The notes beneath the pieces were generated by a model. It was given only the letters and a program-made list of their open reading frames with translations. It searched no databases and was not told the origin of the DNA. This document shows positions 10,662 through 62,709 of a stretch of 64,000 nt of DNA, piece after piece. The translations under genes were made by a program, and so were the position numbers. The DNA is from a virus. How positions within the stretch are numbered: the stretch's first letter is position 1; each line of letters begins with the position of its first letter. The stretch is from positions 106,861 to 170,860 of the IMG/VR virus record IMGVR_UViG_3300020190_000007. One strand, written 5' to 3'.

Positions 10662-10862
10662 ATGATAATCGTAAACGTCAACAAAGAAAAAAACCTTGAA
10701 TCAGCATTAAAAAAATACAAATACAAGGTTCAAAAAACTAAACAAATCGAAAAACTTAGAAAAAAACAAGAATATGTTAAACCATCGGTTGAAAAAAGAG
10801 ATAAAAAATTAAAGGCGATTTATAAGCAGCAATTGTTTACCGATAAAGAAAAATCAAATTAA
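10662..10862 (+). CDS. rpsU: phage-encoded 30S ribosomal protein bS21
   Basis: 66 aa basic protein with NLESALKKYK, LR...YVKPSV.KR and KAIY motifs of Bacteroidota-type S21. Confidence 0.9.
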   Translation: MIIVNVNKEKNLESALKKYKYKVQKTKQIEKLRKKQEYVKPSVEKRDKKLKAIYKQQLFTDKEKSN

Positions 10863-20272: not shown

Positions 20273-22291
20273 ATGTCAGTAGATTTTTTCGAAGAAGGAA
20301 ACACAACCAACCCAAAGAAAACAAGAAAGGGTTCAACCACCCCTATCCTTGATAACTTTTCAAGGGATTTAAACAAAATGGTAGAAGAGGGTAAAATTGA
20401 CCCAATAATTGGGAGAGATGGTGAGGTTAAAAGAATTGCACAGATATTATCTAGAAAAAAGAAAAACAACGTAGTGATAATTGGTGACGCGGGTGTGGGT
20501 AAATCGGCTTTAGTTGAGAAACTCGCTCAGATGATTGTAAAAGGAGATTGTCCATCAAATCTTTTAGACAAACGAGTTGTATCATTAGATTTAACATCTT
20601 TGGTGGCTGGTACAAAATACAGAGGTCAGTTTGAAGAACGTATTAAAGCAGTTCTAAACGAAATACAGAATGAACCTAATGTAATTGTGTTTATTGATGA
20701 AATACACACAATGGTTGGTGCTGGCAACGCTAGCGGGTCAATGGACGCCGCTAATATTATGAAACCCGCATTAGCTCGAGGAGAAATTCAATGTATTGGG
20801 GCGACAACATTTGATGAATTTAAAAAACACATCGAGAAAGATGGTGCATTAGTTAGAAGATTTCAAAAAATAATTTTGAAAGAACCAAGTAAGGAAGAAA
20901 CAGTTCAAATTTTAAAAAATTTAAAAGATTCATATCAAAATTTTCACAAAGTATTTTATGAACCGGAGGTTTTTGAAACTATCGTGAATTTGTCATCAAG
21001 ATTTATCACAGACCGTCAGTTTCCCGATAAAGCAATTGACGTGATGGATGAATTGGGTTCAGAAAAAAAAATAAATACCAAAATTCCTGAGATTATTGAA
21101 AAACTAAAAAAGGAATCTGATGATTTAAAAAATAGGAAGATAGAAGTTGTAAAAAGTCAAAACTATGAACAAGCGGCTAAATTAAGAGATGAAGAAAGAA
21201 AATTACTGAGTAAATTAAATGATGAAAAAAAGAAGTGGTTAGACAAACAAAAAGACAATAAAACACCCGTAACGGTTGCAGATGTATATGAAATGATTTC
21301 ACAAATTACAGGTGTACCTCTCTCTAAGATTGATGATACAGAGACCGCAAATCTTTTGAACTTAGAAGAAAAATTAAAATCTAAAGTAATTGGTCAAGAC
21401 GAGGCTATTTCAATAATTTCCAAATCAATTAGAAGAAATAGGGTTGGTATTAAAGATACAAATAAACCAATAGGTTCTTTTATATTTTTAGGTTCAACTG
21501 GTGTTGGTAAAACATATCTCGCAAAATCGATTGCTGAACTACTTTTCGGAGACTCCGAAAAAGTAATTCGTGTTGATATGAGTGAATACATGGAAAAACA
21601 CAACGTGGCAAAATTAATTGGTTCACCTCCAGGTTATGTTGGTTATGATGAAGGAGGCCAACTTACTGAGAAGATTAAAAATAATCCATTTTCTGTGGTA
21701 TTGTTCGATGAGGTTGAAAAAGCACACAAAGACGTTTTCAATATCTTACTTCAAATTTTGGATGAAGGACATTTAACCGATTCGTTTGGAAGAAAAGTAA
21801 ACTTTACAAACACTATAGTAATCATGACATCCAATATTGGTGCAAAAAAAGTATCTGAATTTGGTAAGGGTGTTGGTTTTAGTTCATCATCTTCAGAATC
21901 ACAAAACTTTGAGGTTAAAAAATCAATCGTTCAAAAATCATTAAAACAACACTTTAACCCTGAGTTTTTGAATCGAGTAGACGACATAATCAGTTTTAAT
22001 TCGTTAGATAAAGATGTAATTAAAAAGATTATTGAAATTGAATTAAATAAGTTGTCTGTTAGATTAAAAGAAAAAAATTATAAAGTTTCTTTTGATAAGA
22101 CAATTGTGGAGAGAATATCGGAACTTAATATTCAAGAAGATTTTGGTGCAAGACCAGTTAAAAGAATCATCCAAAATATGTGTGAAGATTATTTAAGTGA
22201 TTCAATCTTAAAAGGCGAAATTAAGGAGAATGATTCCATTAATTTAAAATTTAAAGACGGTGAAATAAAAATTTTTAAAAAAAGGGTGTAA
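20273..22291 (+). CDS. clpC: ClpC/ClpB-family AAA+ ATPase lacking the N-terminal Clp-repeat domain
   Basis: GDAGVGKS and GSTGVGKT Walker A motifs, GTKYRGQFEER, GSPPGYVGYDEGGQLTE, UVR-like QNYEQAAKLRD, GVGF loop. Confidence 0.88.
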   Translation: MSVDFFEEGNTTNPKKTRKGSTTPILDNFSRDLNKMVEEGKIDPIIGRDGEVKRIAQILSRKKKNNVVIIGDAGVGKSALVEKLAQMIVKGDCPSNLLDKRVVSLDLTSLVAGTKYRGQFEERIKAVLNEIQNEPNVIVFIDEIHTMVGAGNASGSMDAANIMKPALARGEIQCIGATTFDEFKKHIEKDGALVRRFQKIILKEPSKEETVQILKNLKDSYQNFHKVFYEPEVFETIVNLSSRFITDRQFPDKAIDVMDELGSEKKINTKIPEIIEKLKKESDDLKNRKIEVVKSQNYEQAAKLRDEERKLLSKLNDEKKKWLDKQKDNKTPVTVADVYEMISQITGVPLSKIDDTETANLLNLEEKLKSKVIGQDEAISIISKSIRRNRVGIKDTNKPIGSFIFLGSTGVGKTYLAKSIAELLFGDSEKVIRVDMSEYMEKHNVAKLIGSPPGYVGYDEGGQLTEKIKNNPFSVVLFDEVEKAHKDVFNILLQILDEGHLTDSFGRKVNFTNTIVIMTSNIGAKKVSEFGKGVGFSSSSSESQNFEVKKSIVQKSLKQHFNPEFLNRVDDIISFNSLDKDVIKKIIEIELNKLSVRLKEKNYKVSFDKTIVERISELNIQEDFGARPVKRIIQNMCEDYLSDSILKGEIKENDSINLKFKDGEIKIFKKRV

Positions 22292-22329
22292 ATATTCATA
22301 CTTTTTAAAAAAACATATATATTTATATT

Positions 22330-22435
22330 CACACAGGATATCTTTGCCGATTTCCTTTCGTTTTATAGTCTGTGGTGTTGAAACCACAAAATGACCACAA
22401 ACCCCCGACTCTCTGTTGGGGGTTTTTATTTTTTT
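22330..22435 (+). ncRNA. putative small RNA (partner of the 31871-32040 RNA)
   Basis: TATTTATA motif 22320-22327; no ORF; CACAG/CTGTG stem enclosing a pyrimidine-rich loop; strong terminator 22399-22430. Confidence 0.45.
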
Positions 22436-22464
22436 GGTATTCTAAAAATTATTATTTATATTTG
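22433..22464 (+). promoter_or_regulatory. Bacteroidota sigma70-type promoter (-33 TTTG / -7 TAnnTTTG)
   Basis: TTTG 22433-22436, 20-nt spacer, TATATTTG 22457-22464. Confidence 0.7.
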
Positions 22465-22482
22465 CGATAAATCTATTTTACC

Positions 22483-22896
22483 ATGGAATATACAAAAGAT
22501 TTGATATTAGTTAGGGGTTTACCCGGCTCGGGTAAATCCACTTTAGGTGAGGTCATTCTTTATACCCCAAATAATCCAATGAAACCATTGTCGGCGGATG
22601 ATTTCTTTACAGACAAGGAAGGTAACTACAATTTTGACCCAATAAAATTAAGGGAAGCTCATAACGACTGCCAACAAAGGTGTGCAAATTTGATGATGAA
22701 TAGCGTCGTAAGAGTTGTTGTGTCAAATACGTTTACCCAAGAATGGGAAATGGAACCATATTTTGAAATGGCGAAAAGATACGGATATCGAATTCACACT
22801 ATTGTTGTTGAAAACAGACACGGTGGTGAAAATGTCCACGGAGTACCCTCTGACAAATTAGAGATTATGAAAAATCGTTTTGAAGTAAAACTGTGA
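22483..22896 (+). CDS. P-loop kinase (AAA_33 / polynucleotide kinase-like)
   Basis: LILVRGLPGSGKST, SADDFF, VVSNTFTQEWE, NVHGVP motifs. Confidence 0.85.
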   Translation: MEYTKDLILVRGLPGSGKSTLGEVILYTPNNPMKPLSADDFFTDKEGNYNFDPIKLREAHNDCQQRCANLMMNSVVRVVVSNTFTQEWEMEPYFEMAKRYGYRIHTIVVENRHGGENVHGVPSDKLEIMKNRFEVKL

Positions 22897-23231
22897 TAGT
22901 TAGGTTACAAAAATACCATGAGGATGGTTTAGATAATGTTGAGTTGATTTCTTTAGACCACGACTTGGGTGATAGCGCAATGAAAGAATGGTTACACGGT
23001 GTAGTTAAAAACTACGAAATCAACTACGACAATATCACCGAGAAAACAGGTATGGACTGTACCAAATGGTTAGTTAATCAGTGGTTGGATGGAAAACCTG
23101 TTGTTGATGTGGTTGTACATTCAGCCAACGCGGTTGGGAGTGCTAATATGATGGGGTACATCAATAATTATAGACATATCCACAGATTACCCCAAAACTG
23201 TGTGAGAGTTCAGTGGGACCATACGGTTTAA
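22893..23231 (+). pseudogene. N-terminally truncated cyclic-phosphate-processing receiver-like protein, probable deletion fusion
   Basis: ISLDHDLG, KTGMDC.KWL and VHSAN.VG motifs present but the first LxLDD strand is missing. Confidence 0.55.
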
Positions 23232-23659: not shown

Positions 23660-23713
23660 TAAGATGATGATTGATTGATATCACCTAAACGGGTTATATC
23701 ACTCCGTAATCAC

Positions 23714-24772: not shown

Positions 24773-24858
24773 GCCGCTGTGTTGAAACAGGTAGACAAGA
24801 GAGACTTAAAATTTCTTGGACAGTAATGTCCGTGCCGGTTCGATTCCGGCCAGCGGTA
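24773..24858 (+). tRNA. tRNA-Leu(UAA)
   Basis: GCCGCTG/CAGCGGT acceptor, CTTAAAA loop, long variable arm, GGTTCGATTCC. Confidence 0.93.
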
Positions 24859-24922
24859 CAAAAATGGAAAACTCCTCAAATCTACAACTACGGTTATCGT
24901 AGAAGGAAATTTCCATTTTAAT

Positions 24923-24994
24923 GGGCCCATAGGTAAAGGGATATACCCTCTCACTTCTAATGAGATATTCCAAGTTCGAATCTTGGTGGGCCTA
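24923..24994 (+). tRNA. tRNA-Arg(UCU)
   Basis: GGGCCCA/TGGGCCT acceptor, TCTCA-CTTCTAA-TGAGA anticodon arm, CCAAG-TTCGAAT-CTTGG T arm. Confidence 0.9.
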
Positions 24995-25170
24995 CGAATT
25001 TAAATGATGTCTCTTTCTATGACAATTTGAACATAAAAGAACACATTTATTAAGTTCATTTTTGATTGATTCATCAGACTTCAATCTGAGTTTTGACCAA
25101 TCAACATCTTTTTCAGAAGGATTTAAATGGTGAAAATCAAAAATGACATATGAACGATTGAACTTTTGTT
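24992..25170 (-). pseudogene. 3' remnant of an HNH endonuclease
   Basis: FDFHHLNPSEK...ELNKCVLLCSNCHRKRH; the N-terminal CxxC part is absent. Confidence 0.7.
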
Positions 25171-25272
25171 CGTACAGATTGTGGTAATTGGACATGTCAT
25201 ATGAATCCCTCGGGACATAAAAAGGTGGCAAATGCTGTTATCACACAGATGAAATTCAAAGTAAAAAACTAA
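25171..25272 (+). pseudogene. 3' remnant of a probable SGNH/GDSL hydrolase
   Basis: Plus frame reads RTDCGNWTCHMNPSGHKKVANAVITQMKFKVKN*, resembling the block V H.N..GH..hA motif. Confidence 0.45.
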
Positions 25273-25321
25273 TATCGCCGATTTAAACGATAATTCATTT
25301 TATCGGTTATTTCGACGATAC

Positions 25322-25395
25322 GGTCCCTTAGCTCAGTTGGTCAGAGCACCCGACTCATAATCGGTAGGTCCACGGTTCAAGCCCGTGAGGGACCA
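25322..25395 (+). tRNA. tRNA with CAU anticodon (probably Ile2, lysidine type; Met possible)
   Basis: GGTCCCT/AGGGACC acceptor, CTCATAA loop, overall similarity to bacterial tRNA-Ile2. Confidence 0.88.
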
Positions 25396-25421
25396 CGAGA
25401 TATTTATATAATAAAAAAATC

Positions 25422-25874
25422 ATGGGAATTGAATTAAAAAAGAAAAAACAACTTATCGAAAGATTAAACAAAAGACTCCTATCCGAAGCGGAAATGGAAT
25501 GTCCTAAAGCAACTCAAGATTTAGAGTTAAATACCAATAATAGAGACAAGTCAATAAAAGCGGATTATATAAAATATGGTCCACTTAATATTGACGAACC
25601 CGGTGATTATTGGGAAATGGTTGCATCTGATTGGAACACCACTGTTGAAGCTGCTAAAAAATCACTATGTGGTAATTGTGTAGCATTTGATATATCACCA
25701 AGAATGGATGAGTGTATGCCAGGTTCGGTTTCTGATGATAGTGGTAGATTAGGGTACTGTTGGATGCATCACTTTAAATGTCACTCCGCAAGAACATGTA
25801 AAACATGGGCAAAAGGTGGTCCAATTACCGAAGATACGGTGTCCTATGAGTGGCAACAAAAAAATCAAAAATAA
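25422..25874 (+). CDS. Cys-rich hypothetical phage protein
   Basis: CGNCVAF, GYCWMHHFKCHSARTC..W; TATTTATA at 25401-25408. Confidence 0.7.
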   Translation: MGIELKKKKQLIERLNKRLLSEAEMECPKATQDLELNTNNRDKSIKADYIKYGPLNIDEPGDYWEMVASDWNTTVEAAKKSLCGNCVAFDISPRMDECMPGSVSDDSGRLGYCWMHHFKCHSARTCKTWAKGGPITEDTVSYEWQQKNQK

Positions 25875-25943
25875 TATCAACATGTGGTCGTACCCTTAAC
25901 TCCAAAACCTATTAAGGAAATCGTTATGGGAAGACCACTCCAA

Positions 25944-26018
25944 GCGGGAGTAGCTCAGTGGTAGAGCATCGCCTTGCCAAGGCGAGGGCCGTGGGTTCAA
26001 ATCCCATTTCCCGCTCCA
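25944..26018 (+). tRNA. tRNA-Gly(GCC) with encoded CCA
   Basis: GCGGGAG/TTCCCGC acceptor, TTGCCAA loop, TCCA end. Confidence 0.95.
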
Positions 26019-30693: not shown

Positions 30694-31269
30694 GGGGGTG
30701 TATGGAATTGATTGGCGTTGATATGGTAAATGGGCACGTAGTCGGATGTCATCTACGACTTTAATCCACGGTGGTAAATTTTAAACGGCAACGTTTATAA
30801 CCAAATGGAAGTAGCAGGTCTTCTTGCGACTTCTAAAGTTGCAGCCTAATTGGTTGTAACTAACGGGTCGACGGACAGATAACCTTGGAACAGAAGTCCT
30901 TGTAGGGTGTGGTTTCTATCCTAAAAGAAACAAAGTGGAAGATTAGTTCTCAGTAAACCGAACCACTTTAAAATAAGGGAATTGTGAATTTCGGAGTATT
31001 AGAAAATACTGTCCTAAACGTGTAGTCCATTTATTGTATTGCGAGCAAGACGCGGGTTTTTAATCGAGCCCCTTCATATCGTGAGATATGTCGAAAATCG
31101 GATGAACTCAGGGGAAGTCTTTTAGATAATCCTGAGCCAAGCCTGATAGGAACAGGAAGGTGCAGAGACTAGTGGGTGATAGACGCTTCTATCGTAATAC
31201 CACATTAGCGTCCGACATCTCGTTGAGATGATGATATAGTCCAATAATTGTCGAAACCCGCCACCTCCA
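30694..31269 (+). ncRNA. ssrA: tmRNA, intron-containing; tag peptide (A)GNVYNQMEVAGLLATSKVAA at 30787-30849
   Basis: GGGGGTG/CACCTCC-A acceptor with G3.U70; GAC-GCGGG-TTCGAAA-CCCGC T arm after splicing; tag ORF ends in AA; promoter TATCTTTG 30668-30675. Confidence 0.9.
31058..31250 (+). mobile_element. ORF-less group I intron in tmRNA T-loop
   Basis: 5' exon ends in U with P1 GGGT/GCCC; core motifs AATCCTGAGCCAAG, GGTGCAGAGACTAG, GATATAGTCC; terminal G; removal restores the T-loop. Confidence 0.88.
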
Positions 31270-31272
31270 CAT

Positions 31273-31302
31273 TAAAGGGAACCTCAAAAGGGTTCCCTTT
31301 TA
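31273..31302. terminator. bidirectional terminator between tmRNA and nuclease gene
   Basis: AAAGGGAACC/GGTTCCCTTT hairpin. Confidence 0.75.
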
Positions 31303-31805
31303 TTTTTAATTAAAATACTAATTAATTCATGAATATACGCATCATCCATTTCATTTTTCATCCAATTAATTGCCCTTGAAACCCATCTAACATTTCCTTT
31401 AACATAACCTAATTTATTATCTATCCTATCTAAAGACGCAGAATATATTGGATTCTTTTTTATTTTGGTATATGATGACAACTCTAATTTTATACCACTG
31501 AATGGACAAATTCCATTTTGTAAAACCCATTGATTAGACAAATCTTCAATAGTTAAATCAATAATTTGATTTCTTTTTTTAATATTTCTAAAATGATATT
31601 TGAATTTTGAATATTCCCCACCTCTATTATTTGAGTGTCTTTGTATATCGTATCGATTTTTAACGTTTAATAAATTTTTAGTATTGTTAATACCAACACA
31701 ATTTCTTGAACAAAAATTAGGTCTATTTAATTTTTTATTACGATTTAATTCAGAATTTGATTTTTCAAATTCAATCCCACAGCTTGAACAAATACATTTT
31801 CCCAT
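31284..31805 (-). CDS. free-standing HNH/His-Me finger endonuclease with N-terminal Zn finger
   Basis: CSSCG...FCSRNC; CPFSG..L; SLDRID...GYVKGNVRWV...IN.MK. Confidence 0.78.
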   Translation of the reverse strand: MGKCICSSCGIEFEKSNSELNRNKKLNRPNFCSRNCVGINNTKNLLNVKNRYDIQRHSNNRGGEYSKFKYHFRNIKKRNQIIDLTIEDLSNQWVLQNGICPFSGIKLELSSYTKIKKNPIYSASLDRIDNKLGYVKGNVRWVSRAINWMKNEMDDAYIHELISILIKNKREPF

Positions 31806-31870
31806 TTTATTACTTTATTATAAATATGGAGATAATGGGAAAAGTATGGAGGTGTTACTAATTAAATAAT

Positions 31871-32040
31871 AAACCCACCAATTGGTGGGTTTTTTGTTTT
31901 AAGGACACTTTGTCCTCGATATTGTCTTTGAGAGGTATATAACGAACAAAGAGGTCAATTCAGACCCCTTTGCCGAGATGTGGAATACCTCCTTTCGTTT
32001 TTAGTCTAATTATCATCTCATGGCGACCAAACCATTTGAT
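31871..32040 (-). ncRNA. putative structured small RNA displaying an extended SD-like sequence
   Basis: TATTTATA motif (32047-32054, minus); several stems (G.U wobble favours minus strand); hairpin 31871-31895; contains GAAAGGAGGUAUUCCA. Confidence 0.55.
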
Positions 32041-32069
32041 TCTAATTATAAATATCTTGTAATCTTAAT

Positions 32070-56575: not shown

Positions 56576-56695
56576 TTTTTTAAAATCAACTACTTATCAA
56601 ATAAAAAGTATTTAATATATTGATTATCAATATTATAATTAAATTTAAGGTAATGACGCCCTTTAAATTCAAAATAAAATAATAAAATATTTATA

Positions 56696-57070
56696 TTGAA
56701 ACGAAAGGTCAAAATGAAAGCAAAACAATCGGTGGCGGTAATCAAATTTTTAGATTCAATAAGTAAAAGTGTACTTCTAAATGTGTCAGTTGAAAGTTAT
56801 TTTACATTCTCAAAGGAGAAAAAAATCACCACCCAATTTTTAATACTCAAAATGGTAATCAAATCGATGAATGTTAAATTAAACACAAACGAGGCTATTT
56901 TACCAAATTTATTAAAATCATTAAAAAATAGAAATGAAAACTTGGAGAATTATGAATTTGCTGAAGTCTTAAAAAATATAGAATCTAACTTGGATAAATT
57001 GTTAGATATGACTAAAACAAATATAAGAACAAAAAGAACTATTAAGACAAACAAACCAAACGATGTCTAA
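56696..57070 (+). CDS. hypothetical protein
   Basis: ORF track (true start probably ATG 56714). Confidence 0.55.
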   Translation: MKRKVKMKAKQSVAVIKFLDSISKSVLLNVSVESYFTFSKEKKITTQFLILKMVIKSMNVKLNTNEAILPNLLKSLKNRNENLENYEFAEVLKNIESNLDKLLDMTKTNIRTKRTIKTNKPNDV

Positions 57071-60302: not shown

Positions 60303-61871
60303 ATGAGATTCACAGAAATACTGTTTGACACATTATTAGAGGAGGTAAAAAACAAGAAGCTCTTCAACACCCTAATGGATATTTGGAAAACAGAAAGACC
60401 AAATATTACAGACGAAGAAGGTGAAGGGCTTTTTTATGACTTTGCTAAAATAAAAGAAGGTTTAAGGCCTGACCGACCACAAGTATTTACATTTTTAAGT
60501 AGATACGACGGTGAACACGGATATCCAAAATTTGACCCAAATAATTTAAGACAGATTGAAAAATATTCTTATTCTCAATTATCGTTTTTATTAAACGAAT
60601 TTAGACCTGAAGAAAGAGCAGTTGAGAGAGATGTTTTTGCCGGTAGTGATACAAAAGCGTCACCAGAGAGAATAGAAGCGTCAAGAAGATTATGGTTTGG
60701 TAACGATAATTTAGTATTCGAAAGAGATGGTCTTAGGGTTTATGCGATAAGAGACCAACAAATGTCCATACGATATGGATACTGGTATCACACAATGTAC
60801 AAAAAAGCATTAGGTAGACCTGAACAATCTGACAGAGATATTTCTCCATGGTGTGTAACTTGGAGACCTGATATGGGTAAATCAAATATGTGGGGTAATT
60901 ACCGAGGAGAAAGAACATTTTATTTTGTTATTGATGAAAATAAAAGTGAAAATGACCCATATTTTATAAGTACAATCCAAAAAGACACAGGAGTTAATAC
61001 CGGTTTCAGAATTACAAACATGATGAATGGTGGTGACCTTGTTAAAACATGGGAAGAGATAGAAGAAATATATCCACAACTTAGAGGCGAAAGAAATATA
61101 ATAACAACCAAACCATTTTCACAAGAGGAATTATCTCTAAGAGATGTTGTTGGTCAAATAAACGAAAGAGTTGGTGGACAATACGAATTTAAAAGAATGG
61201 AAAAGGGATATAAAAGAGCTTATATCCAAAACGGTGGAACATTAGCAAAACCGGAATCATGGAGGTCAATGGATGACGAACTACGTAATTTGTATATTGT
61301 GTACCCCGAAATAAATCAGTACAACGTTAAAGAAAGATACGGTAACTTTGATTTCCTCAGTGAAATTAAAAAAGTTGGTAATCAATTTAATTTATTGGAC
61401 AGAACTTTAAGAGAAAAAGGTATTGGTGACGGAGTTGGGACTATCGTTGATTTCTTGATGGCTAACGAATTTAAAATTGCGAGAGTTAGTGGTGATAATA
61501 AAAAAATCAGACTATACGAAAGTAAAATTAACGGTAAATCAGGATTGTATAACGTGTCGACAAATTCATGGGTAGAAAAAGATGGTAAGGTTTATGAACC
61601 AAAATATGTACACATCGATACCGATGTTTATGTGGATACGGAAGGAAACACATATGTTGTAGATGTTTACAGTACAAGTACTCAAGCAAACGACGACTCT
61701 TTCTATTCAGTTTACAGTGTTGGTGATGAAAATCCGGAATACAACGCACACTTTATGTCATCTAAACAATTTAAGATATTAATGAAAGAATTGTCTCCTG
61801 ATGATGGTAGTGAACCCGAAACAGACAAACCGGGTGATTACACAGATATAAAAGAAAAAAGGGGTTATTAA
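60303..61871 (+). CDS. hypothetical (probable late/virion) protein
   Basis: 522 aa; WCVTW...W.NY...TFYFVID motif; TATTTAT 60274-60280. Confidence 0.65.
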   Translation: MRFTEILFDTLLEEVKNKKLFNTLMDIWKTERPNITDEEGEGLFYDFAKIKEGLRPDRPQVFTFLSRYDGEHGYPKFDPNNLRQIEKYSYSQLSFLLNEFRPEERAVERDVFAGSDTKASPERIEASRRLWFGNDNLVFERDGLRVYAIRDQQMSIRYGYWYHTMYKKALGRPEQSDRDISPWCVTWRPDMGKSNMWGNYRGERTFYFVIDENKSENDPYFISTIQKDTGVNTGFRITNMMNGGDLVKTWEEIEEIYPQLRGERNIITTKPFSQEELSLRDVVGQINERVGGQYEFKRMEKGYKRAYIQNGGTLAKPESWRSMDDELRNLYIVYPEINQYNVKERYGNFDFLSEIKKVGNQFNLLDRTLREKGIGDGVGTIVDFLMANEFKIARVSGDNKKIRLYESKINGKSGLYNVSTNSWVEKDGKVYEPKYVHIDTDVYVDTEGNTYVVDVYSTSTQANDDSFYSVYSVGDENPEYNAHFMSSKQFKILMKELSPDDGSEPETDKPGDYTDIKEKRGY

Positions 61872-61883
61872 ACCCCTTTTTTT
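61855..61883. terminator. bidirectional terminator
   Basis: AAAAAAGGGGTT-ATT-AAACCCCTTTTTT between convergent genes. Confidence 0.75.
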
Positions 61884-62709
61884 ATGATAACAAAGAATAG
61901 TATTCTTTAAAATGTTTTATACGGTCAGCTAACCCTATTGTACCACCATTTACTCTTTTTGTAATTTTTGTAACCACCGCGTCGGTAGCACCTTCGTCCG
62001 CCATTTTGTGTAATCCGTTTTTACTAAAAAACCAAGCCGCAGATAATAAGGCATATTTTGAAGAAACCAAATCAGGATTTGAAATAACATCCTCATTAAT
62101 TGCTTTACCGAATGCTGTATAGTTATCCTTTCCGGTTAATTGAATGTACCCTCTGCCACGAAATTTATACCCTTCTTTTGTTGGTTCAGCACCATTACCC
62201 ATTCTACCTCCATAAACACGAGATGCAATCGCTTCGGGTTTTCTTTGATATTGTTCTGCTAATGCGTCAGTCGGGAAATATTTTCCAAAAATACCTCTTA
62301 GACCTTTTGCCGAATAATTTAAATTTTCTTGTGTCGCCTTAAACCCACCTGATTCGTGACCACATTGTGCTAAAAAATGTGCCAATCTCAATGGTGTGTT
62401 TATTTGAAACTTTTGCGCGGTGTCAGGAATCAAAGCAATTACCGCATCGGGTATGTGACCTTTTAATTTTTCTAATTTTAAACCACCAACGTTAGGCGCT
62501 GGCGACGGTTCGGTGATTACTGTTTGTGTTGCAAACATTTTAGACCAAGTACCAACACCCACAATTCCGTCCGCTGTTAGTCCATTGGTGGACTGCCATC
62601 CTTTAACTGCCAACTCGGTACCACTACCAAATACACCGTCAGCGGTTAATCCTAATTTTTCTTGTAATTTTTTTACATCTTCACCTGTAGAACCTTTTTT
62701 AAGTAACAT
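61882..62709 (-). CDS. endolysin: PG-binding domain plus GH19 catalytic domain
   Basis: LKKGSTGEDVKKLQ..ADGVFG; AHFLAQCGHESGGF, ENLNYS, FRGRGYIQLTG, RVNGG..GLADR. Confidence 0.92.
   Translation of the reverse strand: MLLKKGSTGEDVKKLQEKLGLTADGVFGSGTELAVKGWQSTNGLTADGIVGVGTWSKMFATQTVITEPSPAPNVGGLKLEKLKGHIPDAVIALIPDTAQKFQINTPLRLAHFLAQCGHESGGFKATQENLNYSAKGLRGIFGKYFPTDALAEQYQRKPEAIASRVYGGRMGNGAEPTKEGYKFRGRGYIQLTGKDNYTAFGKAINEDVISNPDLVSSKYALLSAAWFFSKNGLHKMADEGATDAVVTKITKRVNGGTIGLADRIKHFKEYYSLLS

Follow-up and report, generated by a model that had tools for sequence, protein, structure and literature searches.

The stretch of DNA analysed here (64 kb, hereafter the window) is the terminal part of a 170,860-base IMG/VR virus record which is about 55% complete. 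Its G+C content is 33%, it contains four tRNA genes and one group I intron, and BLAST against a phage collection found no close named-phage record. Locus A (22331-22436, + strand) is a conserved small-RNA gene that combines three covarying stem-loops with a promoter-like box and a terminator, and would give rise to an RNA of roughly 100 nt (RNA A). Locus B (32047-31866, - strand) is a second conserved RNA (RNA B). The features of these loci and two protein genes of the window are listed below.

10662-10860, + strand: phage bS21 gene (Pfam PF01165, E 1.3e-11)
20273-22291, + strand: ClpB-like double-AAA+ gene, immediately upstream of RNA A (Pfam AAA_2, AAA_lid_9, ClpB_D2-small)
22319-22329, + strand: promoter-like box ATATTTATATT of RNA A, at a fixed distance which is kept in all A loci
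22336-22355, + strand: SL1, a GGAUAUC/GAUUUCC stem whose loop, UUUGCC, is the core of block 1; conserved closing pairs
22342-22350, + strand: block 1, CUUUGCCGA, which can pair with UCGGCAAAG of RNA B; relatives have GCCGA or GUCGA
22353-22371, + strand: block 2, U-run and linker complement, UCCUUUCGUUUU-A-UAGUCU, used by the minimum free energy (MFE) heterodimer
22372-22387, + strand: SL2, GUGGU-GUUGAA-ACCAC; changes on both sides in 4 of 5 pairs, 97% of cells paired
22388-22398, + strand: single-stranded AAAAUGACC, conserved, replaced by AGACC in the other clade; all 23 sequences have GACC
22399-22436, + strand: intrinsic terminator of RNA A, also the first one after the ClpB-like gene; 6 of 11 pairs covary
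32045-32055, - strand: promoter-like box ATATTTATAAT of RNA B, of the same kind as that of A
31923-32047, - strand: core of RNA B, with 49 distinct homologues; model R2 scores 117.7 bits
32020-32035, - strand: H1 hairpin of RNA B, loop UUUGGUC
31998-32009, - strand: linker of RNA B, UUAGACUAAAAA
31987-31992, - strand: Shine-Dalgarno (SD) core within the extended SD of RNA B, AACGAAAGGAGGUAUU
31968-31976, - strand: partner of block 1 in RNA B, AUCUCGGCAAAG
31947-31972, - strand: P3 hairpin of RNA B
31866-31892, - strand: bidirectional terminator, where RNA B probably ends

Over 21 distinct sequences, 91.7% of the cells in the folds of RNA A pair, compared with 83.4% in shuffles, and 11 pairs have changed on both sides. 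In SL1, the pair 16:34 has switched from A-U to U-A in 7 of these sequences, and one pair of the terminator is a G.U in 9 of them, which is compatible with the + strand only. The stretch that carries block 2 is mostly single-stranded (22356-22371 is single-stranded). A small peptide encoded by RNA A was considered and rejected: the AUG of AAAAUGACC is missing in the AGACC clade, and there is no conserved start, frame or ORF. A possible pairing of A's GACC with the invariant GGUC(R) loop of B is a match of 4-5 bp only, without covariation.

The elements of RNA B follow each other in the order box, H1, GAUAA, a variable A-rich linker, AACGAAA(A)GGAGGU(A/G)UU, AUCUCGRC and P3. Many G.U pairs and a cUUCGg tetraloop can form on the minus strand only, which defines the strand of this RNA. 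The H1 loop UGGUUUGGUC (32020-32035, - strand) is invariant in all 49 distinct B sequences, and its stem covaries. The 3' tail (31925-31945, - strand) reads UAUACCUCUC, and the MFE fold pairs it with B's own GGAGGUAU; in this predicted fold the tail would act as an internal anti-SD. Such an anti-SD-like tail is kept in the clade of the window only (TACCTCT, TACCTCC, TACCCCT), and the other clades have ACACC-like tails. We found in RNA B no start codon at the proper distance after the SD, and no conserved frame or ORF; a small peptide was rejected for lack of a conserved start or frame. An apparent third B-like RNA at 61832-61948 (26.8 bits) proved to be a mere terminator hairpin.

The 170-kb record has 12 copies of ATATTTATWWT, the box that precedes both RNAs, and most of them are 2-25 nt ahead of an ATG on the same strand that has no SD. 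The box is a candidate phage promoter, which would yield nearly leaderless mRNAs. Other genes of the record bear the TAnnTTTG box that is typical of Bacteroidota. At 56687-56716, the box ATATTTATATT is followed by gaAACGAAAGGtcaaaATG, ahead of an uncharacterised ORF of 118 aa (56714-57070). The sequence AACGAAAGG at this site is the same element as in RNA B, with a perfect 10-nt match to A's CCUUUCGUUU; the site may be a further target of RNA A, or simply belong to a phage gene that uses an SD. In the window, AACGARAGG is observed 4 times versus 0.8 expected.

The initial annotation had started from a repeat, which is indeed present: CTTTGCCGA (22342-22350) recurs at 31968-31976, TCCTTTCGTTTT (22353-22364) at 31990-32001 and TAGTCT (22366-22371) at 32002-32007, and the 13-nt segment by which the two places were said to differ is an insert at the second locus. 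No further match to this two-block pattern exists among the 170,860 bases of the record. Transcription from opposite strands had been proposed as well, and it is what the promoter-like boxes (+ for A, - for B), the strand-specific G.U pairs and cUUCGg tetraloop, and the terminators all predict. The two RNAs were then expected to pair over about 27 nt and to cover half of the SD-like site. The complementarity is real, and longer than that: it is collinear over about 45-55 nt, takes in both blocks, the U/A run that goes with block 2, UAGUCU/AGACUA and the hairpin positions too, and spans the 5' half of the SD-like site. The secondary structure has to be corrected, on the other hand. The CACAG/CTGTG stem is not conserved among relatives, its GTGG being part of the covarying hairpin SL2 (22372-22387), and CTTTGCC, which had been placed in the loop of that stem, sits instead in the loop of SL1 (22336-22355).

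The predicted duplex (RNAduplex) between RNA A and the minus-strand B RNA has an energy of -53.8 kcal/mol. By comparison, 1000 dinucleotide shuffles of A give -27.5 +/- 4.1, none of them (0/1000) as low (z = -6.4), and shuffling B gives z = -6.6. If A's own antisense strand is excepted, RNA B is the top non-self target of A among 11,384 genome windows; the next-best window is at -43.0 and the mean of all windows is -23.7 +/- 5.4. The complementarity is thus beyond chance and specific within the genome. When the RNAs are allowed their own folds, the heterodimer is still favoured, by a ddG of -13.5 to -15.3 kcal/mol. The MFE heterodimer forms through regions that are single-stranded in both RNAs (block 2, the run and the linker); the partner of block 1 lies inside the covarying P3 stem of B, and the MFE dimer leaves it there. 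A role of the direct repeats at the DNA level, in recombination or deletion, was rejected considering that the identical stretches span 6-12 nt and that both loci have strand-specific RNA folds.

Three pattern scans of viral contigs retrieved homologues of both RNAs, 23 distinct sequences of the A type and 49 of the B type, and every one of them comes from a large freshwater phage contig. The covariance model of A has strong matches in 19 of the 21 records searched, and in ten large records (G404-G409, G411-G414), which had first been found only through B, it reveals divergent A genes (60-108 bits); a model of B served for the converse search. In a scan of the whole window with Rfam 15, no family reaches its gathering threshold at A or B; the best matches below threshold are driven by terminators (27 bits versus a cut-off of 55, for example). 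Two pattern matches to RNA A among 401 Bacteroidota genomes were dismissed, both being coding-like chance matches without hairpins.

A and B are both present in the 22 related phage records (22/22) that span both sites. They are on opposite strands and 3-33 kb apart in the 14 records in which both strands were read, the distance being 9.6 kb here. The apparent cases of A without B (G416, G417, G419, G420) were rejected, for these contigs stop 0.9-6 kb before the syntenic place of B; the records with only B are two, 27% and 54% complete. Each locus has its own promoter-like box and its own terminator, which predicts two separate transcription units. What is observed is a pair of conserved and structured RNA genes, on opposite strands, which co-occur, are complementary beyond chance, and change in a matched manner, as described below.

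Compensatory changes between the loci, which had been suggested as a check of the pairing, are found over 22 records, with some C.A exceptions. In block 1, A has GCCGA where B has UCGGC (12 records), or GUCGA where B has UCGAC (6 records); U.G intermediates occur in 2 records, and a C.A mismatch in 2. CCUUUUCG in A goes with CGAAAAGG in B, which makes a 4:4 U:A run in six records, while the run is 3:3 in the others, including G406, although its A is of the sequence type that otherwise has the 4:4 run. Block 2 shows one G.U case (G405). The linker has entirely different sequences in different lineages, and yet A and B remain complementary there: one clade has AGUCU/AGACU, a second one has AUAAGUA/UACUUAU, and G407 has UUUAAAAUU/AAUUUUAAA.

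The duplex energy of the linker alone is -4.1 for cognate versus -2.3 for non-cognate partners, with a permutation p of 4e-5 that ignores shared ancestry; for whole fragments the values are -44.8 and -40.4. Over 21 distinct cognate pairs, the mean cofold ddG is -11.2, compared with -8.8 for non-cognate pairs and -5.4 for shuffled 5' parts; no permutation matched the cognate mean, and here too the permutations ignore shared ancestry. Within clades, the cognate partner is often not the best one. In one clade, block 1 of A has not changed at all, even in records whose B did, and several records depart from complementarity. G418 and c2307 have two C.A mismatches in block 1, B being re-paired internally instead, and c0198 has one G.A mismatch in block 1. 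The A variants UCCUCUCG (G424, c2914, c7507, c2453, c1963) have a C.A mismatch with their own B, and the variant UCCUCACG (G411) also mismatches its own B. Pairing is thus kept by compensatory change with exceptions. Because the deep nodes of the ClpB-like tree are unresolved, the independent double changes cannot be counted, and they may be few events.

The fact that the match is collinear, hairpin positions included, makes locus A look like an old, same-orientation partial copy of B which is now transcribed from the other strand. This raises the question whether the complementarity has any function: A could have inherited it and then gained a promoter on the opposite strand; since then the RNAs would have acted independently, with short-patch recombination maintaining their likeness. 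On the + strand of the DNA the loci are collinear over about 55 nt, each RNA has covarying folds of its own, and block 1 of A has stayed unchanged where B changed, all of which would fit such a history. On the contrary, independent drift would not have preserved the complementarity of three versions of the linker, or the match in run length. About half of the differences in the blocks are compatible with G.U pairs, as expected of a selection on RNA pairing and not of a selection on DNA identity, and the stretches that are identical are just 6-12 nt in loci that are 3-33 kb apart. We consider it quite unlikely that the complementarity is only inherited.

RNA A is directly 3' of the ClpB-like gene in 22 of 22 records, and no terminator was found between the stop codon of this gene (22291) and RNA A. 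RNA A could therefore also arise as the 3' UTR, or 3' end, of the ClpB-like mRNA, yet the promoter-like box also sits between the two. A stricter proposal would be that A is merely the 3' UTR and terminator of this mRNA, kept for mRNA stability and devoid of any action in trans. It would account for the missing terminator and for the synteny (22/22 records), but not for the conservation of a promoter-like box between stop codon and A, and an element that stabilises an mRNA does not need a matched complementarity of 20-30 nt to a distant RNA. We regard this last proposal as very improbable.

Right after RNA A (22483-23231), an AAA_33 kinase-like gene (PHROG polynucleotide kinase / ATPase) is followed by a cREC_REC gene, that is, a gene for a cyclic-phosphate-processing receiver domain. 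Near the tRNA cluster (24773-26018), these two genes look like an RNA-repair pair. Three close relatives (G417, G419, G420) have about 8-9 kb of additional DNA between the equivalents of positions 23671 and 23691 of the window, and this site, between RNA A and the tRNA cluster, is an insertion/deletion hot spot. At 31048-31260 and 31284-31805, the group I intron, on the + strand (Rfam, 68.8 bits), adjoins an endonuclease VII / HNH-like gene of the - strand, which has its own promoter-like box.

RNA B resembles a bacterial leader. It carries the AACGA[A/G]AGGAGGUAUU of bacterial rpsU leaders; in the Bacteroidota that were sampled, these leaders read AACGA[A/G]AGG[A/G]GGU(A/G)U and are located 8-14 nt ahead of the ATG. 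Sixteen consecutive bases of RNA B are identical to one bacterial rpsU-type leader (L274, whose downstream ORF is not bS21-like). Judged from its sequence, RNA B is a non-coding copy of the extended SD leader of the rpsU gene of Bacteroidota, which codes for bS21, and as such it should bind the 3' tail of 16S rRNA. The extended SD of rpsU and the autoregulation of bS21 have been described in Flavobacteriales (PMC7797042, PMC9976891, PMC13000457). In Flavobacterium johnsoniae, the extended SD of rpsU and the 16S tail form a 13-bp helix; bS21 is displaced, and this helix is incompatible with bound bS21 (PMC13000457, PMC9976891).

Taken together, the data support the proposal that A and B form an RNA/anti-RNA pair. 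The single-stranded stretch of A (UCCUUUCG, the U-run and the variable tail) would nucleate on the single-stranded linker of B, and the helix would extend into the 5' extension of B's SD (AAACGAAAGGA), the part that sets an rpsU-type SD apart from an ordinary one. The loop of SL1 (CUUUGCCGA) could pair with UCGGCAAAG just 3' of the SD, and with both blocks paired the SD core would be left in an internal loop of 11-13 nt. RNA A would then compete with the 16S tail for B and limit the access of B to 16S; alternatively, it may be B that buffers A. The most likely role of A, as its predicted pairing suggests, is to mask the 5' extension of B's super-SD. We infer that both RNAs are expressed, that they form a duplex in vivo, and that this has an effect on ribosomes; that A is a trans-acting antisense RNA of the phage's own RNA B, and sets the level of free decoy, is in our opinion rather probable. 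Nothing supports the toxin-antitoxin or timer role that the initial annotation had in mind. The loci are not adjacent as toxin-antitoxin genes are (the distance is 9.6 kb here, and 3-33 kb in relatives), and A and B share one type of promoter-like box, with no hint of different timing.

The CCUUUCG of A is identical to the final bases of the 3' tail of 16S rRNA, with which it would compete for the 5' extension of the SD. In a rival reading, the real target of A is the host rpsU mRNA, whose extended SD would be masked; no more host bS21 would be made, at a time when the phage provides a bS21 of its own, and the complementarity between A and B would be a by-product of B copying the rpsU leader. 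This is in line with the presence of AACGA[A/G]AGG[A/G]GGU 8-14 nt before the ATG in the rpsU leaders of Bacteroidota. Moreover, the common host form AACGAGAGGA finds a perfect complement in the A variants UCCUCUCGUU, which nevertheless have a C.A with their own B, and the U variant of A pairs with both forms. However, the duplexes with 12 sampled leaders, which may not be those of the true host, have energies of -17 to -27 kcal/mol versus -29 to -40 with A's own B, and the shuffle p is 0.02-0.35 for the single leader tested (L272). The sampled leaders offer no partner to block 1 or to the variable linker, both of which have one in B, and the linker covaries with B. Since the energies with the sampled leaders are modest compared to those with its own B, we rank the pairing with host leaders as either a rival or an added role of A: a host mRNA as the real target seems unlikely to us, while A, acting on RNA B, may additionally mask the same element in the host rpsU leader.

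Freshwater jumbo phages of Bacteroidota that encode bS21 are abundant, and how their bS21 enters host ribosomes is an open question (PMC9723584, PMC9976891). One may speculate that A, B and the phage bS21 are parts of one ribosome-takeover module, in which the exchange of a ribosomal protein is driven purely by RNA. The extended SD of B, free of wobble pairs, would pull the 16S tail out of its pocket and evict the host bS21, an eviction that is modelled on what the rpsU leader does in F. johnsoniae. RNA A would strip or titrate B and mask the host rpsU leader, so that no new host bS21 would be made, and the phage bS21 would then occupy the ribosomes. We hold this module to be a tentative idea, and rather unlikely as a whole. 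The conserved, co-evolving pair of phage non-coding RNAs described here centres on the sole sequence known to open the pocket of the 16S tail and displace bS21, and the question of how phage bS21 enters ribosomes is now testable with two short RNAs, 30S subunits and rpsU reporters.

All-RNA pairs have been described in other contexts. SdsR/RyeA is an all-RNA (type VIII) toxin-antitoxin whose partners overlap in cis, are fully complementary, and have a demonstrated toxicity. It resembles what is predicted for A and B in being made of two RNAs, one of which pairs with the other and neutralises it; unlike SdsR/RyeA, the loci of A and B are distant, their pairing is interrupted and toxicity is not known.

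The circuit formed by rpsU and bS21 in Flavobacteriales relies on the same AACGA[A/G]AGGAGGU element as B. The known circuit involves only the mRNA, the 16S tail and bS21, whereas A would add to it an RNA that is predicted to mask the extended SD. Such RNAs are not mentioned in the papers that deal with these phages and with the autoregulation of bS21, and no RNA is known to have been described that masks the extended SD.

In phages, the c4 RNA of P1 and P7 is a trans-acting antisense RNA that acts on the icd-ant mRNA; it is cut from the transcript of its own target and blocks the translation of a downstream ORF. Like c4, RNA A has two short and separate blocks that would pair around a ribosome-binding site, and matched changes in the RNA and its target would define the specificity. 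The mRNA whose ribosome-binding site c4 targets is translated and belongs to the operon of c4 itself. B, by contrast, is a separate gene with neither a start codon nor a conserved ORF, located 3-33 kb from A on the opposite strand.

RNAs directed against other small RNAs are also encoded by prophages: in EHEC, AgvB acts as a sponge of GcvB and AsxR as a sponge of FnrS. The sponge SroC, which acts against GcvB, is another example of a small RNA opposed by an anti-small RNA (PMC4474525). In these pairs, as predicted for ours, the RNAs are separately encoded, and one pairs with the functional single-stranded region of the other and sets its free level; phage-encoded examples are known. The difference is that A and B are both phage genes, and that B is a copy of a ribosome-binding leader and not a regulator of mRNAs. 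Bacteroidota are not known to have Hfq; if our proposal is true, A and B would be among the few cases of RNA-on-RNA control by phages beyond enterobacteria, and this in a phylum without Hfq. The closest kinds of known systems are the pairs of small RNA and anti-small RNA and the c4 RNA of P1 and P7; the novelty lies in the phylum, in the link with a phage-encoded bS21, and in the class of target, which is a putative decoy of the rpsU leader.
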